Source: a virus
Length of the DNA: 46,533 nucleotides
IMG/VR virus record: IMGVR_UViG_3300015209_000001
Span: 1-46,533 of that record
Direction: 5' to 3' (one strand)
Shown here in pieces: positions 2,561 through 33,573 of the stretch (position 1 is the stretch's first letter; every line of letters begins with the position of its first letter). The notes below the pieces were generated by a model that was given only the letters and a program-made list of their open reading frames with translations, did not search any database and had not been told where the DNA came from. Both the position numbers and the translations under genes were made by a program.

Positions 2561-4920
2561 CTTGGCCCACCGCTGCGCCCTTCTCTGCCGAGGCGATCCT
2601 TCGCTCATCCGGCACCACCCTGACCTTCGCTGCCTTCACTCCGGTGATGATCCGCACCGAGGCCGGCGCTGCCGCGACGCTGTGGTCGAACCCCACTCGC
2701 ACCGACCCCCAGCCGAACCCCGTGGTCACCGGCCCAACGGGCAACCTGGCCGGGTTCTACCTGGACGAGCCGGGAACCTACCTGCTGGTCCCTCTGATCG
2801 GGGGAGTAGAGGGCACGGGGGTTCGAGTGGTGGTGCCGCCGGCAACCGCCGACCTGGTGCCTGTGCTTACCACCGCAGCGGGCCTCGCCGCCGAGGTAGT
2901 GGCGCGAGCCGACGCCGACGCCCTGCTCATCCCCCTCGCCCAGAAGGGAGCGGCGAATGGGGTAGCTACCCTCGACGGAGGGGGCCTGGTCCCGGTTGGG
3001 CAACTCCCGGCCCTGGCCATCACCGACACCTTCCCCGTGAACTCCCAGGCGGCCATGCTCGCGCTCGTTGCCCAGCGAGGCGACGTGGCCGTCCGCTCCG
3101 ACCTCTCCAAGTCCTTCATCCTCGCCGCCGATCCTGCTTCCACCTTGGCGAACTGGCTGGAGTTGGCGACCCCTGTGGACGCGGTGCAATCGGTCAACGG
3201 CCGAGCAGGGGTGGTGTCCGGCCTGGCCGAGCAGACGGCGGTCACCGCGGAGGCGTCGGCCCGTACCGCCGCCGACGCCGCCCACGACGGCTCGGCGGCC
3301 GCACACCCTGGCACGTTTGTACCCGTTACCGCCGGTCGGCTGATCCAGCCGACCGGCGGTGCGACACTCGACGCTGAGGCCCGCCGCACCCTTGAGGACA
3401 TCATCGCCACCCTGAACCGCTCGGTGGTGAAACCATCTGCGACCTTCGCCCCGTCGAATGCGAAGAACATCGCCTACTGGTGGCGAGCCGACCGTGGGCA
3501 CTCGGCCACGGATGGCGGTGGGGTCAGTTCGTGGACTGACGTGGTGGGTGGCTTGGCGATGGTCCAGGCGACTGGGGCCGCCAAGCCTGTCTACCGTGCC
3601 GCATCTCCAGACATGGGCAACCAGCCCAGCATCGAGTTCGACGGGGTGGGGCAGTTCTTGGCCGCCCCGTCGATGCCTGCGGTGGCGCAGCCATTCACCG
3701 TCGTCGTGGTCGGCTGCTTCGACTCGTGGGACGAAACGGGCCAACGGATGTTGATGAACCTGTCCTACGGGTGGAACATCTCGAACTTCACGCAGTCGTT
3801 GTCGCAGTACGCAGGAGCGAACGTCGTGCTGTTGAACACCACGCCGGAGTTGAGCGGGCTCGTTCACGCCCTCCACGTTCACAGCGACGGCGCTTACACC
3901 CAGGGGCGTGTAGACGGTGTGGCCGGGGCTGTCGCTGCCGGAGCCGGAGCCGCCGGGATTACCGCAGGCCAACCGGGTGCTATCGGGACCCAATGGAACG
4001 GCGACACTTCCCTGTGCTTTCGGGGCCGCATCGCCCACGTCATCATCATGTCCAACACAGCCGCCCCTGGCTCGGTGACGGCTGGGGCGACGAAGTTCAC
4101 CGAGTCGATGTATCGCCAGACCGAGGATCAGGTGCAGGCCATCTACAGGACGGCCCGCTCGGTGCTCACCCAGCCGTACAAGGCGTCCACGGTTGCCATG
4201 TCGGATGGGCAGAACGCGACCATCTACGTTCCCGCCGACTACAGCGCAGCGGTTGGAGCGCCGCTTGTCCTATGGCACCACGGTTACGGCGGCACCAACA
4301 CCGACCCGTCGTCTAGCGCTGGTCCGCTCGCCTTGCTTTACGAGCTGATCGGTGCCGGGTGCATTGTCGCCTGCTCGAACGCCTCGGGCGACAACTGGGG
4401 CAACAACGCCTCTCTTGCCAACAACAAGGTTCTGTACGCCTACATGGTGGCGAACTACACCATCACCAAGACGTTCGGTGTCGGGTTGTCGATGGGCGCC
4501 CTCGACATGCTGCTGCTCGTCAACGACGGCACCATCCCCTACAAGGGTTGCGTCGGCATATGCCCTGCCACCAGCCTCGCCTACATGTACACGGCCTTCG
4601 GGGCGACCATCAACACCGCCTACAACATCCCTGGCGGTGGCTCCTACGCAACACAGACTGCGGGACACGACCCGAACTTGCTTGCTCTAGCGGGGGCGAA
4701 GTGGGCGATTCCGTTTCGGTTCTACGACGACTCAAGCGGCGACGGCACCACCCTTCCTTCCTCGAACGGCAGGGCCATGGCTACGAAGATCGTCGCTTCG
4801 GCGTTGTCGCCCGAAGCCCGTTTCGTGAACGCCGTGTTCGGCCACCTGGCGGTGTCGCAGTTCACCGACACCGCCGCCGATGTGCGCCGGTTCTTCGACA
4901 GGGCCATTTACGGGGTATGA
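2557..4920 (+). CDS. fibre-like multidomain protein: fibre motif + LamG/ConA-like lectin domain + C-terminal alpha/beta-hydrolase (esterase/lipase-type)
   Basis: GTG overlaps the upstream TGA (GTGA). Fibre motif AQKGAANGVATLDGGGLVPVGQLP. LamG-like segment SIEFDGVGQFL..FRGRIAHVIIMS. Hydrolase part LVLWHHGYGG with nucleophile elbow GLSMG (Ser codon 4489-4491) and a late His (FGHLAV). Confidence 0.75.
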   Translation: MTWPTAAPFSAEAILRSSGTTLTFAAFTPVMIRTEAGAAATLWSNPTRTDPQPNPVVTGPTGNLAGFYLDEPGTYLLVPLIGGVEGTGVRVVVPPATADLVPVLTTAAGLAAEVVARADADALLIPLAQKGAANGVATLDGGGLVPVGQLPALAITDTFPVNSQAAMLALVAQRGDVAVRSDLSKSFILAADPASTLANWLELATPVDAVQSVNGRAGVVSGLAEQTAVTAEASARTAADAAHDGSAAAHPGTFVPVTAGRLIQPTGGATLDAEARRTLEDIIATLNRSVVKPSATFAPSNAKNIAYWWRADRGHSATDGGGVSSWTDVVGGLAMVQATGAAKPVYRAASPDMGNQPSIEFDGVGQFLAAPSMPAVAQPFTVVVVGCFDSWDETGQRMLMNLSYGWNISNFTQSLSQYAGANVVLLNTTPELSGLVHALHVHSDGAYTQGRVDGVAGAVAAGAGAAGITAGQPGAIGTQWNGDTSLCFRGRIAHVIIMSNTAAPGSVTAGATKFTESMYRQTEDQVQAIYRTARSVLTQPYKASTVAMSDGQNATIYVPADYSAAVGAPLVLWHHGYGGTNTDPSSSAGPLALLYELIGAGCIVACSNASGDNWGNNASLANNKVLYAYMVANYTITKTFGVGLSMGALDMLLLVNDGTIPYKGCVGICPATSLAYMYTAFGATINTAYNIPGGGSYATQTAGHDPNLLALAGAKWAIPFRFYDDSSGDGTTLPSSNGRAMATKIVASALSPEARFVNAVFGHLAVSQFTDTAADVRRFFDRAIYGV

Positions 4921-5005
4921 GAAATCCCTCGCGCCGCTCCATGACCCCGCACAAAATGAACGGTTGTGTGCGGCTATCTGGCGGTCGATTGCGCCAGGCC
5001 ACGCC

Positions 5006-5752
5006 ATGAGCCCGATCGTCATCGACGGGGGGACCTCCGGCGGTCTGGACGAGTGGATCACCCCCGCCGACTTGCCGTGCTGCGATCCGGCGGACCCCCA
5101 GCCCGACTACGCCAAGGCCATCGACGTCGCCACGGTCATCCTCCACTCCTTCGCCGGAGGGCGCATCGGCACACAGACGGTCACCGTCCGCCCCTCCTGC
5201 CTGCCCACCTGTGACTGCCGCTTCCGCTGGGACGGGTCGCTCTACCGGGATCGCCCGTACGCGGGGTGCGCCTGCTCGCCCGCGGAGTGGAGGCTGCCCG
5301 GGCCGGTTGTCTCCGTCTCGATGGTCAAGGTGGACGGTGCGGTGATGACGGCATGGCAACTGGCCGGCTCGACGCTCGTCCGCACCGATGGGCGGAGTTG
5401 GCCCTGCTGCCAGAGCCTCTCTGTGGCGACGACGGAGCCGGGGACGTGGGAGGTCGTCTACGTCCGCGGGGTGGTCCCGGACAGCGCGGCCAAGGCCGCA
5501 GCCGCCGAGCTGGCGTGCGAGTTGGCGAAGGGCTGGAGCGGGAGCGGCGAGTGCCGGCTGCCCCAGCGCGTCACCACCATCACCCGCCAGGGCGTCACCG
5601 TGGCGCTCACCGATCCCATGGACCTGTTCGACAAGTCCCAGACCGGGCTCCCCCTGGTGGACCTGTGGCTGGCCGCGGTCAACCCGGCTCGTCTGCGGCG
5701 GCCTGCGAGCATCGCCTACCCTGGAGCACCGACGACGAGGAGGACGGCATAG
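5006..5752 (+). CDS. head-to-tail adaptor (connector) protein
   Basis: ATG at 5006. The signature ..TVTVRPSC..C.C..VKVDGAV..LVRTDGRSWPCCQ..CRLPQRVTTITRQGVTV..VDLWLAAVNP matches the Cys-rich actinophage adaptor family as I recall it. Confidence 0.55.
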   Translation: MSPIVIDGGTSGGLDEWITPADLPCCDPADPQPDYAKAIDVATVILHSFAGGRIGTQTVTVRPSCLPTCDCRFRWDGSLYRDRPYAGCACSPAEWRLPGPVVSVSMVKVDGAVMTAWQLAGSTLVRTDGRSWPCCQSLSVATTEPGTWEVVYVRGVVPDSAAKAAAAELACELAKGWSGSGECRLPQRVTTITRQGVTVALTDPMDLFDKSQTGLPLVDLWLAAVNPARLRRPASIAYPGAPTTRRTA

Positions 5753-13525: not shown

Positions 13526-14158
13526 GTGACCGACTACGCCGCCATCACCGACGCGTCAAATACCTTCACGACCACAGGGCTGAGCGAGGAGGACCGGGCC
13601 CTGCTCGCCTACGTGATGGCGATGAAGGCGGGCGGGCTCGACGTCGTGGTCACGGCCACCACCGACCATCCCCTGCGCACGTCCTCGGGCAACCTCTCGC
13701 GTCACCGCATGGCCGGCACCAAGGGGGAGGGCCTGGCCATCGACGCCAGGATGCGGACCCGGGGCAACGACATCCACCGGGCGGTGTTCGACGGCTTCGC
13801 CCTGGTGGAGACGCACCTCCACGAGCTGATCTACTCCGGCGCCCCCTACTCAATCAAGGCGGGCAAGCGGGTGAAGCCCTATGCGGTGGCCGCGCACCAC
13901 AGCCACGTTCACTGCGCTGTGGGTCCGGGCACGTTCGTCCGGTTCCCTTCCGCCCCGCCCGCTCCCGCCCCGCCCCCACAGGAGGACGACATGAACTTCC
14001 ACTACGTCTACGCCAACGCCTACTACACGACCAACATGGTGCACCGCCAGCACTGGGATTCGGCCGGCCCCGGGTTCACCATCATGCTCGCCCACACCAA
14101 GCCGCTGGGCGAGGTGCCCCAGGACTTCCACGACTCGCTGGTGGACGCGGAGCGGTGA
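13526..14158 (+). CDS. putative LAS/M15-type zinc peptidase (endolysin candidate)
   Basis: SRHRMAGTKGEGLAIDAR and HHSHVH fit the H..D / HxH metal-ligand layout of VanY/M15-like peptidases. It opens the lysis cassette. Confidence 0.5.
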   Translation: MTDYAAITDASNTFTTTGLSEEDRALLAYVMAMKAGGLDVVVTATTDHPLRTSSGNLSRHRMAGTKGEGLAIDARMRTRGNDIHRAVFDGFALVETHLHELIYSGAPYSIKAGKRVKPYAVAAHHSHVHCAVGPGTFVRFPSAPPAPAPPPQEDDMNFHYVYANAYYTTNMVHRQHWDSAGPGFTIMLAHTKPLGEVPQDFHDSLVDAER

Positions 14159-14607
14159 CCACGGTCCTGCTGCTGTTGCTGGTGGTCATCACCGGCGCCA
14201 CCCTGGCCGTGCTCGTGAAGCTGATGAGCTTCGTGCAGGGGCTCGACATCCCCGAGATCGCCATGGTGCTCCAGGTGGACAAGATCCTGGCCGGCCTCAC
14301 CACCGCAGCGGACCTCGCTGCCGAGGTCGCCCGGGACCTCAAGATCGACGTGGCCGTGTCCAGCCAGCAGTTCAGCCGGCTCGTGATCCTGCTCGACCGC
14401 CTGCAGATCGACGCCACCGCCACCGCCGCGTCGGGTGTGCGCATCGAGGCCGAGGGCGACAGGGTGGCCTCGGATCTAGCCGACGTGCAAAGCCACGCTC
14501 GCATCATCGAGGCCGAGCCCACCACCCCGCCCGGCTCCGCCGCTGATTTCGCCGCCGGCGGTAACGATCGTCCCATGCCGAAGGTCGCTCGCAAGCGTAG
14601 GAACTGA
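14155..14607 (+). CDS. membrane-anchored coiled-coil protein (holin/lysis accessory candidate)
   Basis: GTGA overlap. N-terminal TM VLLLLLVVITGATLAVLV, followed by a long helical region. Confidence 0.6.
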   Translation: MTTVLLLLLVVITGATLAVLVKLMSFVQGLDIPEIAMVLQVDKILAGLTTAADLAAEVARDLKIDVAVSSQQFSRLVILLDRLQIDATATAASGVRIEAEGDRVASDLADVQSHARIIEAEPTTPPGSAADFAAGGNDRPMPKVARKRRN

Positions 14608-15161
14608 TGCGCTCGGCCGCCGCGGTGGTCAAGCTGACCAAGGACGTTGCCCTGCTCAAGGTCTTCAGCGACCACCTGGTCCATCAGGCGACCCAGCTAC
14701 GGGAGCGCTCGGCGCTGGTCGATGTGCTGATCCCGGTCTCGAGGCGCACCGATGTGTTCTCCGAGATCCTCGCCGGTGTCGAGCGCATGGCCGCGGTGTA
14801 TCCCGGGTTCGCCATCGACGTGAACCTCATCAACAACCGCTCGTGTCTGGCCGTCAACACCGGCGCCGAGGTGGCCCAGGAGACCACGATGTGTCGGTAC
14901 TCCATCGCCTCGGGAGCGGTGTTGTCCGTCGACGACAGCCTGGAGGACGCCATCGTCTGCGACAACCCCTACGCCCAGATCGTGCGGTCCTACCTGGGGG
15001 CGCCGATCGTGGTTCGGGGGTGGGTGGTGGGGGTGTGCTGCATGCACGGCCCCCACGTCGCCTGCTGGGCCCAGGTGGACCGGGACCGGGTGGCGGCGTG
15101 GGCCAAGTCAGTGTCGTCGGTGTTGGAGATGGGCTTCATCCTGCCTGCCCATGGTCCATGA
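14607..15161 (+). CDS. stand-alone GAF-domain protein (184 aa)
   Basis: MCRYSIASGAVLSVDDSLEDAIVCDNPYAQIVRSYLGAPIVVRGWVVGVCCMHGP...VDRDRVAAWAKSVSSVLE follows the classic GAF pattern (C....g..l.v.D...D.....NP.....irSYlG.Pi...g..vG.lc......w...d...l...A). Confidence 0.6.
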   Translation: MRSAAAVVKLTKDVALLKVFSDHLVHQATQLRERSALVDVLIPVSRRTDVFSEILAGVERMAAVYPGFAIDVNLINNRSCLAVNTGAEVAQETTMCRYSIASGAVLSVDDSLEDAIVCDNPYAQIVRSYLGAPIVVRGWVVGVCCMHGPHVACWAQVDRDRVAAWAKSVSSVLEMGFILPAHGP

Positions 15162-15463
15162 CCTTTGTCATCACGGGCATAGCTGCTTCGCTCATCACGG
15201 CGCTGGGCGCCATGCTCTTGGCGAGGTACTCCAAGAGCGGGCGGATCAAGACCAGTGAAGCGGTCGATTTGTGGACGACGTTGCGTAGCGAGCTGACCCG
15301 TCTGCAGGAGGAGGCGGTGCGGCTGCGGGCCGAGATCACCGTGGGTCAACAGGAGATGGCGGCACTGCGCGTCGAGGCCACCGAGATCCGGGTGCGCATG
15401 GCCGAGGTGCAGGCCCAACTGGTGATCTGCTCGGCCACGCTGAAGGAGTACGAAAGTGGTTGA
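15158..15463 (+). CDS. membrane-anchored coiled-coil protein (101 aa)
   Basis: ATGA overlap. N-terminal [22 protein letters not shown], then heptad-like [19 protein letters not shown].. Confidence 0.6.
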
Positions 15464-16124
15464 CCGCCTTCCGGTCGCCCCACCGGTGCCAGAGCACAAC
15501 CACCACCCCGGCGCCATCGCCTTTGCCATCCTCACCGCCTCGTTGTGCCTGGCGATACTCGGCGCCGCCCTCGCCGCCCAGACCACCCGGCGCCAGGCCC
15601 GAGCCGCGGTGGAAGCGAACTGCCGCACGCAACTGAAGACCCAGCGGGTGATGGTGGCGCTCATCAACCAGTTGACCGCCCCCCGGGTCTTCGAGGGCAT
15701 GGTCGACTCCGCCACCATGGCCGCTCAGGAGGCCGAGAACGCCGAGGCGGCCAAGAACCGCAAGGCGCTGTTGGCGGAGCTGGCCGCGCTCGACTGCGGG
15801 GCGCTCGGGCAGGGCGATGTGTCGCCCGTGGTGGTTCCCCTCCCACCCGCGCCTCCCCCCGGCGTGGTCGGCCTCGACGGAGCTCGGGGGGCTGATGGTT
15901 TTACCGGGCCCGCGTCGATGGTTCCGGGTCCGCAAGGGGTTCCGGGTCCCCAAGGCGAACCGGGGGCAAGTATTGTGGGACCCCGCGGGGACCCCGGCCC
16001 CAAAGGCGACCCCGGGCCTGAGGGCCCTCCGGCGCCCACAACCACTACGACCACCACCATTCCCTCCACTACGACGACTCAGCCGTGCCAGCTCCTGCTG
16101 CAAGGCCAGTGCATTGCACCGTGA
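15456..16124 (+). CDS. membrane-anchored collagen-like (G-X-Y) repeat protein with a poly-Thr tract
   Basis: [27 protein letters not shown] run [44 protein letters not shown] (nt 15870-16028). [15 protein letters not shown]-terminal CQLLLQGQC. Confidence 0.65.
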
Positions 16125-16240
16125 ACGAGTGGCCCTCCTGGCAGGTCGTGCTCGCCGCCGTAGTTCTCGCCCTGGTCGGCGTGGTGGTCGTGCTGTTCGG
16201 CGCCGGGTTCGTCGCCTGGGCCATCCTGTTCGGCCGATGA
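16121..16240 (+). CDS. 39-aa single-TM protein (holin-like)
   Basis: GTGA overlap. [39 protein letters not shown]. Below the ORF-track size cut-off. Confidence 0.4.
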
Positions 16241-16250
16241 AAGGACACCT

Positions 16251-16949
16251 ATGACCTACCTTCCCCTGCCCCGCCCCACCTTCGACCGAGGTGGTCTGTC
16301 GCTGACCAGCCACGACCCGCGCAACCGCGCCTTCCCCGTGCGCGCCCTGCTCTCGCCTGCGCCCATCCGGGACCGCTCCTGGCGGCGCTGGAGGCCGATC
16401 CAAAATCAGGGGAGGACATCGAGCTGTGTCGGGCAGGCGTTCGTCGGCCTCACCGTGACGCGGCCCCACTACGGGCTGCTGTCCCCCCTCCAGCGCAGGG
16501 CCATCCCCGACCCCTATGACCTCTACCTCGCCGCTCAGGGCCTCGATGACTTCGAGGGAGCCGAGCCGACCTACCAGGGCACCTCCACCCTTGCCGGGGC
16601 CAAGGCGGCCAAGGCGGCCGGGCTGATCCGCGAGTACCGCTGGTGCTTCGGCATCGCGGACGTGATCGACGCCCTCAACACCCTCGGGCCGGTGACCACC
16701 GGGCTGGACTGGACGATGGCTATGGCGCGGCCGATGAGCGACGGCCGCCCCGATCCCGGCGCGGGAGAGGCGATTCTGGGGGGCCACGAGACGTGCCTGG
16801 TGGGCATCGACGCCGAACGCAAGGAGGTTCTCGGCGTGAACTCGTGGGGCTCGGAGTGGAGCGTCAAAGGCAGATTCCGGTGGTCGTGGAAGCTGCTGGA
16901 GGAGCGCCTGGCCGCTCAGGGCGACGCGTGTGTGGGGCTGGTGGCGTGA
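16251..16949 (+). CDS. papain-like (C1 family) cysteine peptidase, endolysin candidate
   Basis: GAAAGGA upstream of the ATG. Catalytic layout NQGRTSSCVGQAF (Cys), GGHETCLVG (His), VNSWGSEW (Asn). Confidence 0.75.
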   Translation: MTYLPLPRPTFDRGGLSLTSHDPRNRAFPVRALLSPAPIRDRSWRRWRPIQNQGRTSSCVGQAFVGLTVTRPHYGLLSPLQRRAIPDPYDLYLAAQGLDDFEGAEPTYQGTSTLAGAKAAKAAGLIREYRWCFGIADVIDALNTLGPVTTGLDWTMAMARPMSDGRPDPGAGEAILGGHETCLVGIDAERKEVLGVNSWGSEWSVKGRFRWSWKLLEERLAAQGDACVGLVA

Positions 16950-17098
16950 TCCTCGGCTCCCACACCGGAGACGCCCGCTGCGCCTGTGTTGACCAGCACC
17001 GGCCCCGCGTCTACGAGTTCGACATTCACCACGTTTTGAGGAGTCAGCGTCGGGTGCCGTTCAAGATTCGTCGGATGTGCTCGTGGCTGACGCCATAA
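16946..17098 (+). pseudogene. possible truncated HNH-like remnant (50 aa ORF)
   Basis: GTGA overlap. The first ~29 codons have high GC3 and read ..ARCACVDQHRPRVYEFDIHHV. Codon bias is lost where the ORF runs into the 3' end of the opposite-strand HNH gene. Confidence 0.3.
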
Positions 17099-17625
17099 GC
17101 GCGAGCCAACTTGGCCTTGTCTCCGTATCGGAGGCCTCCGTGATTCCGGATAGCGGCGACCTGTTCGTCAGTGAGCCTCCTCTGGAGATCGCCAAGGAAG
17201 CCCGTCTCGTTCCCTCGCTGTCGACCCTTGGCGAGCTTGTCGGCGATGTTGTCTGCGTTCGTACCGACGAACAGGTGAGCCGGGTTCACGCACGGCGGGT
17301 TGTCACATCGGTGGAGCACGTGCAGCCCGAGCGGCACTGGTTCGCCGGTTGCAACCTCTACAGCAACACGATGCGCACGCACGGGAACGCGAGGACGCTG
17401 CTGAAAAACTCCGTACCCGTCCTTGTCCCGCCCACCGAACCATTCCCAGCACTCGTCGGGCGAGCCTTTGACGAAGTAACGCCGAAAGCGTATGGGCCAT
17501 GGTGCGCGGAACTCAAACGTGATATTGCCGTGAGCCCTGAACCGTTTGTAGTGCTTCGGACACAGACCTCGCGCCCCCTTGTCGCCTACGGGACGGTCGC
17601 AGTCGGGAGCTTCGCACATTCTCAC
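17044..17625 (-). CDS. HNH homing endonuclease with C-terminal HTH
   Basis: GYGVF..AHRVAVE..VLHRCDNPPCVNPAHLFVGTNADNIADKLAKGR. Local GC is visibly lower than the flanks. It is a lone reverse-strand gene. Confidence 0.9.
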   Translation of the reverse strand: MRMCEAPDCDRPVGDKGARGLCPKHYKRFRAHGNITFEFRAPWPIRFRRYFVKGSPDECWEWFGGRDKDGYGVFQQRPRVPVRAHRVAVEVATGEPVPLGLHVLHRCDNPPCVNPAHLFVGTNADNIADKLAKGRQRGNETGFLGDLQRRLTDEQVAAIRNHGGLRYGDKAKLARAYGVSHEHIRRILNGTRR

Positions 17626-24003: not shown

Positions 24004-25221
24004 ATGCCGCATTCCTCCACGGCTGAGCGCCAGGTGCTCGGCGTGGTGCTGCTCGGCACCCACTACGCCAGCGCGGCGGAGGCGTTGTTCGCCGAGTTGT
24101 CGCCCGAGGACTTCTACGTGCCCTCCCACGCCCGGATCTGGCGGGTAGCGGCCGAGGCGTGGCGGCGGCACTCCACCGGCGACGTGGCCACCATCGTGCG
24201 CACCGGCGAGGACATGGGCGAGGCCATGGACCCCGTGGAGTTGATCGAGATCCTCGCTGCCTCCTCCGGCGTACTGGGCGCCAAGGCATCAGCGACGGTG
24301 GTGGACAGGGCCAGCCGGCGATGGCTGCTCGCGGCCCTGTCCACCGCCATCGACAACGCCGCCGAGCCCTCCGTCGACCTGGGAGCGGTGACCGATGGCC
24401 TGCGAGCGGCCCTGGCGCATGTGGACATCCCCACCCGCACCGCCGTCTGTCCCCCGGATATCCACGACCTGTTGGTGACCAGCGAGCCTGAGTACGACTG
24501 GCTGGTGCCGGGCCTGCTGGAGCGCGGCGACCGGCTCATGGTCACCGCCCGAGAAGGCGCGGGCAAGACGCTGTGGCTGCGACAGCTCGCCGTGCAACTC
24601 GCCGGGGGGTACCACCCGATCAACGCCCGAGAGATCGAGCCGGTCAGGGTCCTGGCCGTCGACCTGGAGAACAGCGCCCGCCAGGCCCGGCGCTGGTACC
24701 GCATCCTCAACCGGGCCATGATCCTGCACGGCCGCATGATCCCCGAGGACACGCTCTACCCCGTCCCCCGCCCGGGAGGCCTTGACCTGCTCGACCGCAG
24801 TGACCTGCGATGGCTGATGGAGCACTGCGCCGCCACAAAGCCGCAGGTGCTCATGATCGGCCCGGTGTACAAGCTGCACTCGGGTGACCCGCACGAGGAG
24901 GCGCCGGCCCGCAAGGTCATCGCCGCCCTCGACCGCATCCGCGACCTCTACGGCTGCGCCATCGTCATGGAGACCCACTCACCGCACGACACCTCGCATC
25001 GCCCGGGCCGCCCCTTCGGAGCCTCGATCTGGATGCGCTGGCCCGAGTTCGGCTTCGCCCTGATCGCCGACAAGTCCAAGCGCAACCGGTTCCGCTTCGT
25101 GGCCTGGCGCGGGCCCCGCGACGAGCGTGGATGGCCGGCGGCCTACGCCAAGGGCGGACAATGGCCCTGGACCCCTGAGCAACGAGACGGGCCCGACACC
25201 GACCACGAGGAGCTGTTCTGA
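24004..25221 (+). CDS. DnaB-like / RepA-type replicative helicase (RecA-fold ATPase)
   Basis: N-terminal AERQVLGVVLLG (DnaB N-domain opening). Walker A VTAREGAGKTLWLRQLAVQLAGG. Walker-B-like VLMIGPVYKL. Confidence 0.8.
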   Translation: MPHSSTAERQVLGVVLLGTHYASAAEALFAELSPEDFYVPSHARIWRVAAEAWRRHSTGDVATIVRTGEDMGEAMDPVELIEILAASSGVLGAKASATVVDRASRRWLLAALSTAIDNAAEPSVDLGAVTDGLRAALAHVDIPTRTAVCPPDIHDLLVTSEPEYDWLVPGLLERGDRLMVTAREGAGKTLWLRQLAVQLAGGYHPINAREIEPVRVLAVDLENSARQARRWYRILNRAMILHGRMIPEDTLYPVPRPGGLDLLDRSDLRWLMEHCAATKPQVLMIGPVYKLHSGDPHEEAPARKVIAALDRIRDLYGCAIVMETHSPHDTSHRPGRPFGASIWMRWPEFGFALIADKSKRNRFRFVAWRGPRDERGWPAAYAKGGQWPWTPEQRDGPDTDHEELF

Positions 25222-25592
25222 TGAAGCGCACCCGCATCAAGCGCCTCTCCCCTGACGAGGTGAAGAGCGTGGCATGGATCATCCGCTCTACCGAGGTCAT
25301 GGTCCGCGCCCGGTGGTACTGCGAGTTGGCGACCCCGCGATGTGCCACCGGCCGCCACGACGCCGAGCACGTCCATCACCGCAAGCTGCGCTCCCAGGGC
25401 GGCAGCGACGAATCGGTGAATCTTCTGGCCGTCTGCTTCAACGGGCACCGCTACGTGCATGACCACCCGGCCGAGTCCTACGCCCGGGGTTGGCTTCTGC
25501 GCTCATGGGAGGCCGAGACGCCCTATTCCCCATCCCCGCCCGTAGCGGGCCTCCAGGACGACCCCCGGGGGCGGAGAAGCGATCCTGCGTGA
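25221..25592 (+). CDS. HNH endonuclease (small)
   Basis: CELATPRC..AEHVHHRKLRSQGGSDESVNLLAVCFNGHRYVHDHP. Confidence 0.8.
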   Translation: MKRTRIKRLSPDEVKSVAWIIRSTEVMVRARWYCELATPRCATGRHDAEHVHHRKLRSQGGSDESVNLLAVCFNGHRYVHDHPAESYARGWLLRSWEAETPYSPSPPVAGLQDDPRGRRSDPA

Positions 25593-27710: not shown

Positions 27711-27913
27711 CCCAGGGAAAGGTGTGGTGGAAGTACGCCGTGCTGCGAGGCAAATGGCTACCTGTCGGGCTAGACGGCCGGTGGTACGAGTTGTCGGACC
27801 TCTCGCCGGAGCTTGGAAACGTCCCAAACGCTGTTTCATTCGGCCCCACCCACGAGTGGGAGCAGCGTGAAGACGGCGAAGTGGCGGTCGTTTACCGTCT
27901 GGAGACGCCGTGA
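27707..27913 (+). CDS. hypothetical protein (68 aa)
   Basis: GTGA overlap. Confidence 0.45.
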   Translation: MTQGKVWWKYAVLRGKWLPVGLDGRWYELSDLSPELGNVPNAVSFGPTHEWEQREDGEVAVVYRLETP

Positions 27914-28245
27914 CACCCGAGGAGCGCCAGGACGCAGCGTGCCGGACCTCCACGGTCAACTTCTTCCCCGAACCAGTCGACCACGCGGGCATCGCCGCCG
28001 CCGTGGCTGTCTGCGGCTCCTGCCCGGTCCTCTCGTCCTGCGCCACCCAAGGCGAGAAGGAGACGGCCGGTGTGTGGGGCGGCATCTACCGAGGCCGCAA
28101 GGTCCACCGTCCACGCCGGTACTGCGCCTGGTGCGGGTCGGTCCATCGCACGCCGTGGGTCTACTGCTCGCCCGCCTGTCGCTCCCGAGCCAACGCCGAA
28201 AACGCCCTCAACCGCTACCGGACCCGTCATCAGGTGGACGCATGA
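27910..28245 (+). CDS. whiB: WhiB-family Fe-S transcription factor
   Basis: GTGA overlap. C..(n)..FFP....A.AVCGSCPVLSSC....ETAGVWGG is the WhiB four-Cys signature plus the G[VI]WGG turn. Confidence 0.85.
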   Translation: MTPEERQDAACRTSTVNFFPEPVDHAGIAAAVAVCGSCPVLSSCATQGEKETAGVWGGIYRGRKVHRPRRYCAWCGSVHRTPWVYCSPACRSRANAENALNRYRTRHQVDA

Positions 28246-29706: not shown

Positions 29707-30021
29707 ATGACCCAAGCATGGATTCCGAACCCGATCCGGAGGGAAGTGTCGATCAAGTCAGGGGGTCGATGCTTCCATTGCCAGAAGGTAGCGACCTCCG
29801 TCAAGGTGGACCGTTGGTCCATTCCTCGGTTCGCAGATGAAGAGGGCGTTCCCTTCGAGGTAGACCACCTTCTCCCTCGGAGCCAAGGCGGCACCACCGA
29901 CGCCGGCAACCTCGTCGTGGCCTGCCGTTCGTGCAATAGGAGCCGCAAGCGGACAACAGCTAGCGACCAGGACGCCGTGAGACAACTTGTCGAGAACATC
30001 AACGGGTCGAGGTCGGGGTGA
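29707..30021 (+). CDS. HNH endonuclease
   Basis: CFHCQK..FEVDHLLPRSQGGTTDAGNLVVACRSCNRSR. ATG lies 6 nt after a TAGACT box (29695-29700). The upstream region is lower in GC. Confidence 0.85.
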   Translation: MTQAWIPNPIRREVSIKSGGRCFHCQKVATSVKVDRWSIPRFADEEGVPFEVDHLLPRSQGGTTDAGNLVVACRSCNRSRKRTTASDQDAVRQLVENINGSRSG

Positions 30022-30491
30022 CGCGCTACGTGGCCTTCTTCGCTGCCGCCGTGCTCATCTCCTGCACGCCCCCAACCACCCAATCCACCGCCCCACCGAC
30101 TACAACCTCTACGACCACTTCTACACAGGTCCCCACCAAGACGATTCCCGCCGACTCGTCTGGTGGGATGGCTGCCGTTCCTGCCGTCGAGCCCCCCCAG
30201 GCTCCGGTGGGGGCGGTGGCCGACTCGCACGTACTCGAAAGAATTGAGAGTGGCGACGTGCTGGCACGAATAGCACGGTGCGAGGGGTATCCCCGCTTCG
30301 TCAACGCCAGCCATCCGGGGCGCTCGTCGGCGTCGGGCAAGTACGGCGCACTCGACGGCACCTGGGGCGGCTACGGCGGCTACAGGCAGGCCAAGGACGC
30401 TCCCGAGGCCGTGCAGGACGCTTGGGCGGCTGAGTTGTACGCCAAGGCCGGGACGCGGCCATGGGCGGCGTCTAGGGGGTGCTGGGGATGA
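30018..30491 (+). CDS. secreted lipoprotein with an Rpf/transglycosylase-like domain
   Basis: GTGA overlap. Lipobox AAVLISC. Thr/Pro linker. ARCEGYP..SGKYGALDGTWGGYGG..AVQDAWAAELYAKAGTRPWAASRGCW resembles the transglycosylase-like (Rpf) domain. Confidence 0.6.
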   Translation: MTRYVAFFAAAVLISCTPPTTQSTAPPTTTSTTTSTQVPTKTIPADSSGGMAAVPAVEPPQAPVGAVADSHVLERIESGDVLARIARCEGYPRFVNASHPGRSSASGKYGALDGTWGGYGGYRQAKDAPEAVQDAWAAELYAKAGTRPWAASRGCWG

Positions 30492-30883
30492 TCGAGCGCA
30501 ACGGCTACCTCATGCGTTACGTAGGTCCTCGGCGCGGGCCGGGTTCTCCGTACAAATACGTGCATCGACTCGTCATGGCCGAACACCTGGGCCGACCACT
30601 GCTGGCGAGCGAAATAGTCCATCACATCAACCACGACAAGCACGACAATCGCCTGGAGAACCTGGAAATAACGACGGCTGCCGAACACGCTCGGCAGCAC
30701 ATCGCAGATGGAACCGCCGGCATCGGCAAAATCGGCCCCCGTCATGATCTGAGGATGCCGAAGGTGCCATGCCCTATCTGCGGCGCAATGTTCACGCCGT
30801 ACCAGCACCGGCCGGGCCAACGTCAGGCAGCGTGCTCGTTCTCCTGTTCCAACAAGCTGCGGCCGCGTGGAGTGGCCGTATGA
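30488..30883 (+). CDS. HNH homing endonuclease (HNH_3-type) with a C-terminal zinc ribbon
   Basis: ATGA overlap. [52 protein letters not shown]. Confidence 0.85.
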   Translation: MIERNGYLMRYVGPRRGPGSPYKYVHRLVMAEHLGRPLLASEIVHHINHDKHDNRLENLEITTAAEHARQHIADGTAGIGKIGPRHDLRMPKVPCPICGAMFTPYQHRPGQRQAACSFSCSNKLRPRGVAV

Positions 30884-31718: not shown

Positions 31719-32825
31719 GGGGGCGGGGCTAATACAGGCCAACGCAATCGCTCTGCCATTGGCAGACGCGAGCGTGGACTTGATAATCACCTCGCCCCCG
31801 TGAGGCCTTACTTCGCCCTTCGCTCCTACCGCGACGCTGGCGAGCACTACGACGCTCAGATCGGTAGCGAGCCAACGCCACAAGCGTTTCTGGAGGCCCT
31901 GTGGTCCGTCCTGAGCGAGTGCTGGCGCGTGCTGAAGCCGACCGGCTCATGCTGGGTCAATCTCGGGGACAAGCGCAGCGGGAGCGGCGGGCACAACAAC
32001 GCCGGCATCTCGTCCAAGTCCACCCTGAGCGGCAATGGACACGTCGGCGGCGTGGGCAAGGCGGGCCCGACGAAGATCAAGGCCACGCTTCGCAACGCCC
32101 CCGACCGCTACAACCAGGCCGCCTTCGGTCGCACCAAGTCGAAGATGCTGCTCCCGCACCGCTTCGCCATCGGGTGCGAGGACGGGTTGGCCGACCCCGA
32201 GGGCATCGGGTGGATCGTGCGGCAGGACGTGGTGTGGAGCAAGAGAAATTCGCTTCCAGAATCAGTGACCGACCGGACCCGGGATAGTCACGAGTTTTGG
32301 TTTCATCTGACCAAGCAGGGGCGGTACTTCTCGGCGGTGGACGAAATCCGCCAGCCATCGGTGCCTCAGAACGGCCTAGCCGGCACGTTCAAGCGGCCCA
32401 AGCCCAGCCACGACCTTGTGCCGGGGCAGGCTGCTACCCAGCAGCGAGCAGAGCGCAACGGGGACGACGCCTACCACCCGAAGGGCGCCCTCCCTGGCTC
32501 AGTCTGGACCGTCGCCTCCGAGCCCCTACGCATCCCCGACGCGGTGAAGGCGCACTACGACCTGCCCGACCACTTCGCCGCCTTCCCGCAGGAACTTCCA
32601 CGGCGCATCATCCTCGGCTGGTCGCCGTCTGGCATCTGTGTGGAGTGTGGTGAGGGCCGACGTCCGGTGGTGATCCGAGAGTTCCACGGTGAGTTCAACG
32701 AGCAGGAAGCAGGAAGGCAACGTGAACGAGGCGTGGTGAGCGGGGCCGTCGACAAGGTGACGCTCGGCAGGACGGACGACGTGGAACGCACTATCACCGG
32801 CTACGCCTGCGCCTGCCCCCCGTGC

Positions 32826-33341
32826 GGGGATTGTTCTAGGACGCTAAGATTGTCCTATGACAAAACCGTGTCTCCAGTGCGGGTCACAGATAACCCTCGA
32901 CCACCTAAAAGTGAAGTGGGAGTCGGATCGTCTACGGGCGCTCAAGAAGGCTCGGTTTTGCTGCAAGGCATGTTCGAGTCGCTGGAACGCGGCACACCGG
33001 GCGTCAACGACGTATCGCCGGCTGACGACTCGCGGATACGTGGAACTGTGGAAGCCGAGTCACCCGATGGCGAACAAGGGCGGGTACATCATGGAGCACC
33101 GCTACTTGATGGCGGAGCACCTAGGGCGGCTCCTGACCTCGGCCGAGGTCGTGCATCACAGGAACGAGATCAAGACGGACAACCGGCTAGAAAACCTCGA
33201 AGTCCTGCAAAAGAAGGACCACGACCGCCGGCCGAAGCCGCTGCCGAAGCCGTTTCAGTGCCCTCACTGTCAGGGCTGGTTACAGACGTTCGGGAGCCAC
33301 AGCCGTGTCCGCACTGTCGTCCCGCTCCCACCAGAGCCAGT
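32826..33341 (+). mobile_element. Insertion carrying an HNH homing endonuclease inside the methyltransferase gene (free-standing or intron-borne)
   Basis: A lower-GC junction (gattgttctaggacgctaagattgtcctatgac) follows the methyltransferase sequence GYACACPP. Native methyltransferase sequence resumes near ..[18 protein letters not shown]. Boundaries are approximate. Confidence 0.5.
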
Positions 33342-33345
33342 GTGA
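32857..33345 (+). CDS. HNH homing endonuclease (HNH_3-type) with an N-terminal zinc ribbon
   Basis: [63 protein letters not shown]. Paralog of 30488-30883. Its frame differs from the methyltransferase frame. Confidence 0.85.
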
Positions 33346-33573
33346 TTCTTGATCCCTTTTCTGGAACCGGCACCGTCCCCGGAGTCGCCCGCCAGCTCGG
33401 CCGATTCGGCGTCGGCATCGACCTGAGCTTCGACTACCTGCGCCTGGCCCGTTGGTTTTTGGATGACGGCCGTAGGTTCTCAAAAACCAGCACGAGAACC
33501 GACCGGGAGCGCCAGGGCGTGCTCCTGTGACCCTGCCCGCCGCCGCCTGCGCCGCACCGCGTAACACGGCCTC

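Follow-up and report, generated by a model that had tools for sequence, protein, structure and literature searches.

Introduction

The fitness of a phage is set by the timing of lysis. This timing is governed by the accumulation of holin in the systems that have been studied best, whereas T4 uses antiholins, which detect superinfection. One of its antiholins, RIII, is soluble and cytoplasmic; it is encoded by the phage, binds a domain of the holin and makes lysis timing dependent on a signal (PMC11413866). SpoIISA of Bacillus subtilis is a holin-like toxin with a membrane-attached cytoplasmic GAF domain, which has an extended N-terminal helix, dimerises and was proposed to regulate the assembly of the holin-like membrane lesion (PMC3057836). 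LytS of Staphylococcus and Bacillus has multiple transmembrane (TM) segments, a cytoplasmic GAF domain directly after the membrane helices and a kinase; it controls the antiholin-like lrgAB in a pathway that senses membrane potential (PMC4830213). The GAF domain of Dcsbis (PA2771; PDB 4zmu) forms a four-helix-bundle dimer and has a large hydrophobic pocket; it does not bind cyclic AMP (cAMP) or cyclic GMP (cGMP) (PMC4937426). Here we describe a phage gene for a stand-alone, putatively cytoplasmic GAF-domain protein of 184 amino acids (aa). It lies at positions 14607–15161 (+ strand, ATG start) of the IMG/VR virus record IMGVR_UViG_3300015209_000001. The window that we analysed is the whole 46,533-bp contig of this record. 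We tentatively propose that the protein is a soluble cytoplasmic accessory regulatory subunit of the phage lysis machinery, namely a membrane-proximal, antiholin-like sensor, a reading that we regard as possible rather than probable. Its observed basis consists of the fold, the coupling to neighbouring genes, the synteny among relatives and the occurrence of TM fusions.

The lysis of actinobacterial phages is only now being resolved (LysF1a/b, LysZ, LysY), and the cassettes hold several unexplained genes. LysF1b is required for normal lysis, and its deletion leads to severe lysis defects (PMC13056207). LysZ is a newly described actinophage lysis factor that was experimentally tied to lysis (bioRxiv 10.1101/2025.06.24.661397), and a class of holin-like proteins with one TM segment has been described in Gordonia phages (PMC9671378). 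Only membrane proteins and lysins are found in the cassettes of these papers (PMC9671378, PMC13056207, bioRxiv 10.1101/2025.06.24.661397), and no GAF or soluble sensor protein is described in those of LysF1b and LysZ (PMC13056207, bioRxiv 10.1101/2025.06.24.661397). When searching the accessible literature for a GAF domain together with a phage lysis cassette or an actinobacteriophage, we found no prior description. The combination of GAF with antiholin returned only LytS and a B. subtilis review, so that the only cellular parallels were SpoIISA and LytS.

Results

The 184-aa product is a stand-alone GAF domain

In a genome with 69% GC, long open frames arise by chance on all strands. The open reading frame (ORF) at 14607–15161 has a GC content of 0.91 at third codon positions (GC3) and of 0.45 at second codon positions (GC2), which is the coding signature of this genome, and its product has full-length homologues (best E 8.6e-30 in an exhaustive HMMER search). 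Because of this signature and these homologues, we conclude that it is a real gene and that a chance ORF is ruled out. A preliminary description of this DNA, made from the letters alone, had quoted a peptide of this ORF, which is indeed present in the translation.

The same description had recognised a GAF pattern in the product. Pfam PF01590 (GAF) matched residues 75–156 with 26.6 bits (gathering threshold 22.4, E 9.7e-6), and the precomputed annotation of the protein likewise gave PF01590. A profile of the family (alignment A1) matched the whole domain of 4zmu_A, the GAF domain of Dcsbis, over profile positions 49–182 (E 1.8e-14); at E <= 0.01 it also matched the GAF domains of PtsP, DevS and cyanobacteriochromes in the PDB. 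An AlphaFold2 model based on the same alignment (pLDDT 93.3, pTM 0.86) contained N-terminal helices at residues 4–29, 32–45 and 48–64, a beta-sheet and a long C-terminal helix at residues 156–178. When this model was compared to the PDB with Foldseek, all of the best 50 matches were GAF domains, with 4zmu as the best one (TM-score 0.70, root-mean-square deviation (RMSD) 2.8 Å). Model and matches together point to the three-layer alpha/beta GAF fold. The 184-aa product is a genuine stand-alone GAF domain. No second or output domain, TM segment or signal peptide was found in Pfam and hydropathy scans of the protein, in agreement with the earlier statement that it has no output domain.

Within the protein, a family-specific long helix (residues 4–29 of the model; 14616–14693, +) precedes the GAF core (residues 32–178; 14700–15140, +), in which the part matched by Pfam corresponds to 14829–15074. 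Seven residues are invariant in alignment A1 (R34, C96, D110, Y129, G131, G142 and C145), and conservation is concentrated at residues 96–145, the distal half of the domain. In other GAF domains, this distal half forms the ligand pocket. In addition to the fold and the whole-domain profile homology, the phage protein and Dcsbis have several motifs in common: a Cys where alpha3 begins, D, Y-x-G-x-P and G-x-L-C. On the other hand, Dcsbis is a cellular proteobacterial enzyme with a GGDEF output domain, whereas the phage protein lacks an output domain, carries an additional helix at its N-terminus and is the product of a gene in a lysis operon.

The two invariant cysteines of the family could also be those of a free methionine-R-sulfoxide reductase (fRMsr), a thiol enzyme with a GAF fold. 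Four fRMsr-type structures (3rfb, 3mmh, 4mmn and 3ksf) were among the fold matches, with TMq values of 0.5–0.6. However, their identity to the phage protein was 12–16% and the RMSD was mostly far above that of Dcsbis. Moreover, the profile search of the PDB (E <= 0.01) gave sensor GAF domains and no fRMsr, and the invariant Cys pair is common to non-enzymatic sensor GAF domains, for instance that of Dcsbis. We consider the chance that the protein is such an enzyme to be very low.

In the PHROG search, the sole match of the 184-aa protein was a weak one to phrog_14602, the function of which is unassigned, and no homology to RIII or other described antiholins was found. Since the protein does not belong to the antiholins by homology, only a functional analogy is possible. 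RIII is a small helical protein without a sensor domain, and the master regulator of T4, RI, is periplasmic. When the GAF model was compared to BFVD with Foldseek, weak matches to T4-type holins were observed (E 3e-4 to 2.5e-2, TMq ~0.4), namely the 'T holin lysis mediator' of Serratia phage PS2, a class III holin of Proteus phage Stubb and the holin of phiP4-3.

The GAF gene is part of a tightly packed operon with genes for membrane proteins

The TGA stop codon of the upstream gene overlaps the ATG of the GAF gene as TGATG (14605–14609), and the ATG of the downstream gene overlaps the GAF stop codon as ATGA (15158–15161). Further overlapping junctions were found at 14155/14158 (stop and start overlapping as GTGA) and at 15456/15463. 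In total, the genes from 14155 to 15463 are joined by overlaps of 1 to 8 nt, and no promoter-like or terminator-like signal above background was detected inside 12.4–18.2 kb. These overlapping junctions and the lack of internal signals indicate that the GAF gene belongs to a tightly packed operon. Translational coupling on both sides, as the preliminary description had proposed, can thus be read from the junctions, and the GAF protein is predicted to be co-translated with single-pass holin-like proteins, the bulk of which is predicted to be cytoplasmic.

To predict TM segments and topologies, we used the positive-inside rule together with a simple hydropathy window. The upstream gene (14155–14607, +) encodes a 150-aa membrane protein with an N-terminal TM segment (residues ~1–29, hydropathy maximum 2.8), a remainder that is predicted to be soluble and a basic C-terminal tail. 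The downstream gene (15158–15463, +) encodes a 101-aa holin-like protein with one N-terminal TM segment (residues 1–23) and a coiled-coil tail, as judged from hydropathy and Pfam. Because its TM segment is followed by R/K-rich residues, an N-out/C-in orientation is predicted. The 101-aa protein gave weak matches to coiled-coil families in Pfam and to Rz-like spanins in PHROGs, and falls into the same class as LysF1b and the Gordonia holin-like proteins with one TM segment, a likeness of architecture. Both neighbours had been described as membrane-anchored coiled coils; the membrane anchor is found in both, while coiled-coil matches, weak ones, were obtained for the downstream protein.

The next gene (15456–16124, +) encodes a 222-aa LysZ-like protein. 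It contains a disordered N-terminus, a TM segment (residues 17–43 by hydropathy), a long helix, a Pro-rich/collagen G-x-y linker (Pfam Collagen, E 1.2e-5), a poly-Thr stretch and a C-terminal Cys motif. The disordered N-terminus, TM segment, long helix, Pro-rich linker and short C-terminal segment are alike in LysZ, again a likeness of architecture. It is followed by a gene for a very hydrophobic 51-aa protein, a candidate holin-like protein (16085–16240, +; hydropathy maximum 3.18 over residues 15–51, GC3 0.80); since this gene overlaps the preceding one by 40 nt, its true start is uncertain. The gene at 16251–16949 (+) encodes a 232-aa papain-like cysteine peptidase, a lysis-cassette marker (phrog_16701 'peptidase', E 9.4e-41). 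It is 35–39% identical to the products of genes annotated as 'cysteine protease/peptidase/putative lysin' in Gordonia, Mycobacterium and Streptomyces phages, and in Sixama and Lilbeanie the homologous genes sit between lysin A and holin.

The first gene of the cassette lies directly after the tail genes (13526–14158, +) and encodes a 210-aa putative cell-wall hydrolase with a LAS-type Zn-peptidase-like motif. In the alignment of its family (A3), H60, D73, H124, H127 and H129 are invariant and resemble a metal site (H...D / HxxHxH). The N-terminal 140 residues were modelled with a pLDDT >90, and the C-terminal third varies among homologues. No significant match was obtained in Pfam, NCBIfam, PHROGs, tblastn against phages or phmmer and profile searches of the PDB, nor with AlphaFold2 and Foldseek. 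A comparison by hhalign to the VanY-like protein of a related locus (L022) was negative as well. The non-significant PDB matches included LasA (E 0.36) and a domain of the LysM protein 9flh (E 0.07). As the motif comes with no significant profile or fold match, the assignment as a LAS-type Zn-peptidase is suggestive only, and the family may represent an undescribed endolysin catalytic domain. Of the two peptidase genes between which the GAF gene was said to lie, the one at 16251–16949 is therefore a cysteine peptidase gene, whereas the one at 13526–14158 is recognised by its motif.

Overall, the region appears to be largely a lysis cassette, as had been proposed: the cysteine peptidase is of the cassette type and has homologues in other, annotated lysis cassettes, and a LysZ-like and a LysF1b-class protein are encoded nearby. 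Furthermore, four of the seven TM-bearing genes of the genome are concentrated here. A PADLOC search gave no defence-system match for the GAF protein or its neighbours.

The family is rare and includes TM-fused forms

When 1.84 billion representative proteins were scanned exhaustively with HMMER (cut-off E <= 1e-3), 116 matches were obtained. About 12 of these are stand-alone proteins of 170–215 aa that align end to end with 23–41% identity; the remaining matches are GAF repeats in large sensor proteins. At 50% identity, the family forms ~14 clusters among the 1.84 billion representatives and is thus rare. One further protein, P0122 (E 5e-13), was left out of the family because of its bacterial context with NUDIX and insertion sequence (IS) genes. 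A word-indexed search of 5.8 billion proteins with the single 184-aa protein returned only the protein itself, and a single-sequence search for related loci found none in viral or genome contigs. In addition, tblastn of the window protein (P0001) and of the relatives P0009 and P0018 against 50,697 GenBank phages yielded no relatives, just chance matches or matches to the GAF domain of ptsP.

In four of the ~14 clusters (P0006, P0009, P0018 and P0026), an N-terminal TM segment is fused just ahead of the first helix of the family. In all four, Arg-rich residues follow the TM helix, which places the GAF domain on the cytoplasmic face. A cytoplasmic location is also suggested by the soluble forms, which have no signal peptide, and by the two invariant cysteines. 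The TM-helix-GAF layout of these four clusters is like that of SpoIISA. However, SpoIISA has three TM segments and an antitoxin, SpoIISB, whereas the TM-fused homologues have one TM segment and the window protein has none, and SpoIISA was absent from the PDB profile matches (E <= 0.01) and from the best 50 fold matches.

The preliminary description had raised the possibility that the protein is a sponge for cyclic (oligo)nucleotide immune signals of the host, as in anti-CBASS, anti-Pycsar or anti-Thoeris strategies. Some GAF domains do bind cAMP or cGMP, the GAF domains of PDE2A, PDE5A and Lcd1-cAMP were among the fold matches, and the phage protein is small, soluble and without an output domain. 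The details of the protein and its gene argue against this function. The dipeptides NK and DE are absent from the 184-aa sequence, so the NKFDE motif of cyclic nucleotide monophosphate (cNMP) binding is missing, and the closest solved relative, the GAF domain of Dcsbis, does not bind cAMP or cGMP (PMC4937426). The gene is located in the late tail/lysis operon and is coupled to membrane-protein genes, whereas a sponge would be expected to act early, and TM-anchored homologues fit a bulk cytoplasmic sponge poorly. Moreover, no Tad1-, Tad2- or Acb2-like family was present among the best 50 PDB fold matches, PHROGs or BFVD; those 50 PDB matches were to GAF domains only. Taken together, we consider this function very improbable.

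Relatives of the GAF gene recur next to genes for membrane proteins

The DNA context was recovered for 11 independent family members, including the window (identity 23–41%, contig GC 45–73%). L013 (P0002, 41% identity, GC 69%) has the order amidase-like gene, GAF gene, gene for an 80-aa coiled coil with one TM segment and gene for a 56-aa coiled coil, with 4-nt overlaps among the first three genes. In L023 (P0008, GC 68%), the GAF gene is followed by genes for a 110-aa coiled coil with one TM segment and a 181-aa TM/collagen/poly-Thr/Cys protein. This locus therefore repeats the three-gene order of the window, that is, GAF, coiled coil with one TM segment and LysZ-like TM/collagen protein, at ~30% identity. 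The 222-aa protein of the window and its counterpart (L023:996-1541) matched each other in phmmer (E 1.9e-10), and both the collagen-type linker and the terminal Cys pair recur.

In L016 (P0004, GC 61%), a gene for a protein with peptidoglycan (PG)-binding repeats (PG_binding_3 above threshold) precedes the GAF gene, and a tiny hydrophobic ORF and a coiled-coil gene follow. In L022 (P0007, GC 45.5%), genes for an SLT transglycosylase (above threshold), a VanY-like protein, a 108-aa protein and a 94-aa protein with an N-terminal TM segment precede the GAF gene. The last of these is the counterpart of the 150-aa protein of the window; its gene overlaps the GAF gene by 4 nt, and the pairwise similarity of the two proteins is marginal. 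L005 (P0119, GC 64.5%) contains tail genes and, further on, a TM coiled coil, a 59-aa protein, a coiled coil with two TM segments, the GAF protein and a nuclease/HNH gene.

The GAF domain itself is fused to a TM segment in three of the 11 contexts. L024 (P0006, GC 73%) has the order TM coiled coil, TM protein, TM-GAF and Mu Gam, and thus mirrors the transition from the cassette to Gam in the window. In L001/L002 (P0018, GC 72%), an Amidase_2 gene is located further upstream and the TM-GAF gene is followed by an overlapping gene for a coiled-coil protein with two TM segments. The phage-like contig L001 also encodes a TROVE (Ro60-like) protein (797–2443) and, near the GAF gene, a Band_7/SPFH lipoprotein with the lipobox LLGGC (4355–5359). 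In L017, a lone TM-GAF gene is located among small early-type genes, near an HTH_17 gene. The two remaining contexts are L015, with a divergent HTH gene (HTH_3) upstream and a coupled TM-protein gene after the GAF gene, and L021, with a PNKP-like neighbour and no TM neighbour.

In six of the eight unfused contexts, an adjacent gene clearly encodes a TM segment; L016 has a doubtful hydrophobic ORF of 26 aa, and L021 has neither. A TM fusion, a TM neighbour or a doubtful hydrophobic ORF is thus seen in ten of the 11 contexts (3 + 6 + 1). Compared to a base rate of 13% for TM genes in the window, the TM adjacency in six of eight unfused contexts corresponds to P ~0.004, a rough estimate. In addition, genes for cell-wall hydrolases are present within the visible flank of five of the 11 contexts (window, L001, L013, L016 and L022). 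When the proteins of the window were compared to the neighbours in the relatives by pairwise BLASTP and phmmer, only the TM/collagen pair was detectable.

The hydrolase genes would also fit a role in which the GAF protein binds a cell-wall hydrolase in the cytoplasm and keeps it inactive or aids its export. Such a role can be likened to the chaperone idea for Ms6 Gp1. The GAF gene is located immediately 3′ of the amidase-like gene in L013 and of the PG-binding-repeat gene in L016, and in the window a single gene separates it from that of the putative 210-aa peptidase. In L023, L024, L005 and L001, however, the immediate partners are TM proteins, and the variants with a fused TM segment suggest a role close to the membrane. 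The hydrolases moreover come from families that are not related to each other (amidase, SLT, VanY-like, LAS-like and C1), which makes a specific binding partner unlikely. We therefore regard a function directed at the endolysin as quite improbable.

Related stand-alone GAF proteins are widespread in actinobacteria

A degenerate DNA pattern for the motif V-R-S-Y-L-G-x-P gave no matches in IMG/VR and >120 matches in genomes. Filtering with the family hidden Markov model (HMM) showed that the genomic matches are cellular GAF domains, and they were ruled out as family members. Related GAF domains are numerous in the genomes of actinobacteria, mainly Streptomyces, and some of them are stand-alone proteins of ~180 aa. 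Chromosomal proteins of this kind are widespread in Streptomyces and Saccharopolyspora (L115, L047, L052, L140, L082, L056 and others).

These cellular proteins are single-domain proteins of a size similar to that of the phage protein, and they have the core motifs Y-C, D, VRSYLGAPL, LGTVC and PR-x-W in common with the phage family. They reach 50–58 bits against the family HMM, whereas family members reach at least 190 bits, and they match only HMM positions ~38–183, that is, without the N-terminal helix of the phage family. Instead, the products of these chromosomal genes have a differing N-terminus (LLxTPxDREAPxR...LGLG). Since the cellular proteins share the core motifs but not this helix, the GAF domain of the phage family was probably captured from the actinobacterial pool of stand-alone GAF proteins and gained an N-terminal helix of its own.

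A captured domain might serve a purpose unrelated to lysis, as an accessory gene or 'moron'. The captured GAF protein would then mimic or titrate a host GAF partner, or its TM-fused forms would act in superinfection exclusion or prophage defence, and the gene would merely sit at a module boundary where accessory genes accumulate. The stand-alone proteins of Streptomyces and Saccharopolyspora, which carry every core motif, speak for this explanation, as do the non-lysis contexts of L017, L015 and L021. Genes that are expressed from a prophage usually lie next to the integrase and immunity repressor genes. In the BFVD search with Foldseek, the viral protein with the best structural match was gp43 of Gordonia phage Finkle (ON456347, L018:16622-17377), a 251-aa 'membrane protein' with two TM segments and a GAF-like fold, the gene of which is located beside those of a tyrosine integrase and an immunity repressor. 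However, Finkle gp43 is no sequence relative (hhalign probability 3%); it lies outside the lysis cassette and was ruled out as a family member, leaving it as a structural analogue only. In the window, the GAF gene overlaps TM-protein genes on both sides, and L023 keeps the three-gene order at only ~30% identity. Hydrolase genes occur in five independent contexts, and the PADLOC search was negative. On balance, we hold an accessory function unrelated to lysis to be unlikely, and it is the first among the alternatives that we considered.

The window appears to be the genome of a novel actinophage

The contig looks like a complete actinophage genome. The structural genes comprise those for the small and large terminase, portal, head-morphogenesis protein, protease, major capsid protein and head-tail adaptor. 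They are followed by the tail genes (tape measure, Dit and further tail proteins), and the lysis region lies directly after these. Downstream of the lysis region, HNH, nuclease, Gam-like, Erf-like and helicase genes and the gene for a WhiB-like regulator were found. The capsid protein is 35–39% identical to those of Arthrobacter, Gordonia, Streptomyces and Microbacterium phages. A megablast search with the cassette found no nucleotide-level relative among the 50,697 GenBank phages. Based on this result and on the gene content, the window represents a novel phage that is placed among the actinophages. ARAGORN found no tRNA genes across the whole contig, and no integrase was seen among the scanned ORFs in a scan that was not exhaustive.

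The gene for the WhiB-like regulator (27910–28245, +; phrog_14459, E 3.7e-11) is consistent with an actinobacterial host. Three HNH endonuclease genes were found, at 17044–17625 (−), 25221–25592 (+) and 30479–30883 (+). The first of these, which separates the lysis operon from the nuclease/Gam/Erf module, is the sole gene near the cassette that lies clearly on the minus strand. Far from the cassette, a 157-aa ORF (30018–30491, +) matched the Rpf-like family 'Transglycosylas' (PF06737) with 27.7 bits (threshold 27). Together with the HNH gene at 30479–30883 and an N6/N4 DNA methylase gene (31800–33530), it lies in a block of lower GC content (29.2–33.6 kb).

Discussion

The preliminary description had also suggested that the GAF protein is a ligand-gated regulator of the holin or of lysis timing. 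The recurrent TM or holin-like neighbours and fusions, as well as the hydrolase genes in five contexts, lend circumstantial support to such a regulator. The comparative genomics would thereby link the protein functionally to lysis, either as a soluble holin regulator or as a membrane-proximal GAF domain. As with antiholins, the 184-aa protein is a predicted soluble cytoplasmic protein that is co-encoded with holin-type membrane proteins.

GAF domains usually dimerise through their N- and C-terminal helices (PMC4937426, PMC3057836). In the mechanism that we propose, a GAF dimer, probably formed via these helices, would dock on the flanking membrane proteins at their cytoplasmic coiled coils. 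In the manner of a cytoplasmic antiholin, docking would restrain or promote the assembly of the holin-like proteins into lethal holes. The balance might be tipped by occupancy of the pocket by a small, probably non-cNMP ligand, or by the redox state of C96/C145, and the timing of lysis would thereby be coupled to the physiological state of the host. That the proteins interact, that a ligand binds and that timing is affected is what we infer from sequence comparisons. Whereas LytS acts on transcription via its histidine kinase and LytR, the phage GAF protein has no kinase and would need direct protein contact.

Several observations weigh against an antiholin-like sensor. The link of the GAF gene to lysis rests on gene order, and the boundary between tail and lysis genes is a common site for unrelated accessory genes. 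TM segments and topologies come from simple predictions, which we count as a weakness of the proposal. Apart from the TM/collagen pair, the neighbours have no detectable sequence similarity, and synteny is therefore claimed for architecture only. Moreover, L015, L017 and L021 cannot readily be recognised as lysis cassettes, and most of the related contigs are 1–3 kb long, so that their context is partial. In L026, a homologue of the 210-aa protein (L026:8001-8777) is directly followed by a TM coiled-coil protein and no GAF gene is present, which indicates that the GAF protein is dispensable for that kind of cassette.

A bolder form of the antiholin-like sensor, which we consider doubtful, would make the GAF protein the first antiholin, or holin co-regulator, with a sensor domain. 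It would act on N-out/C-in coiled coils, so that triggering follows a host metabolite or redox state and not the holin concentration alone. The TM-fused relatives would then represent this device in a single chain.

If it is by position only that the gene is linked to lysis, it represents a GAF domain captured from a host, and its interest is modest. The 184-aa protein would also provide a tractable minimal member of the Dcsbis-type GAF subclass. Among the Actinomycetota phages are some that infect industrial Streptomyces and others that are related to therapeutic mycobacteriophages. If our proposal is true, the GAF protein may represent an undescribed means by which a phage tunes the time of host lysis, and a conserved soluble sensor among holin-like proteins would be a concrete candidate for signal-dependent control of lysis in the phages of Actinomycetota.

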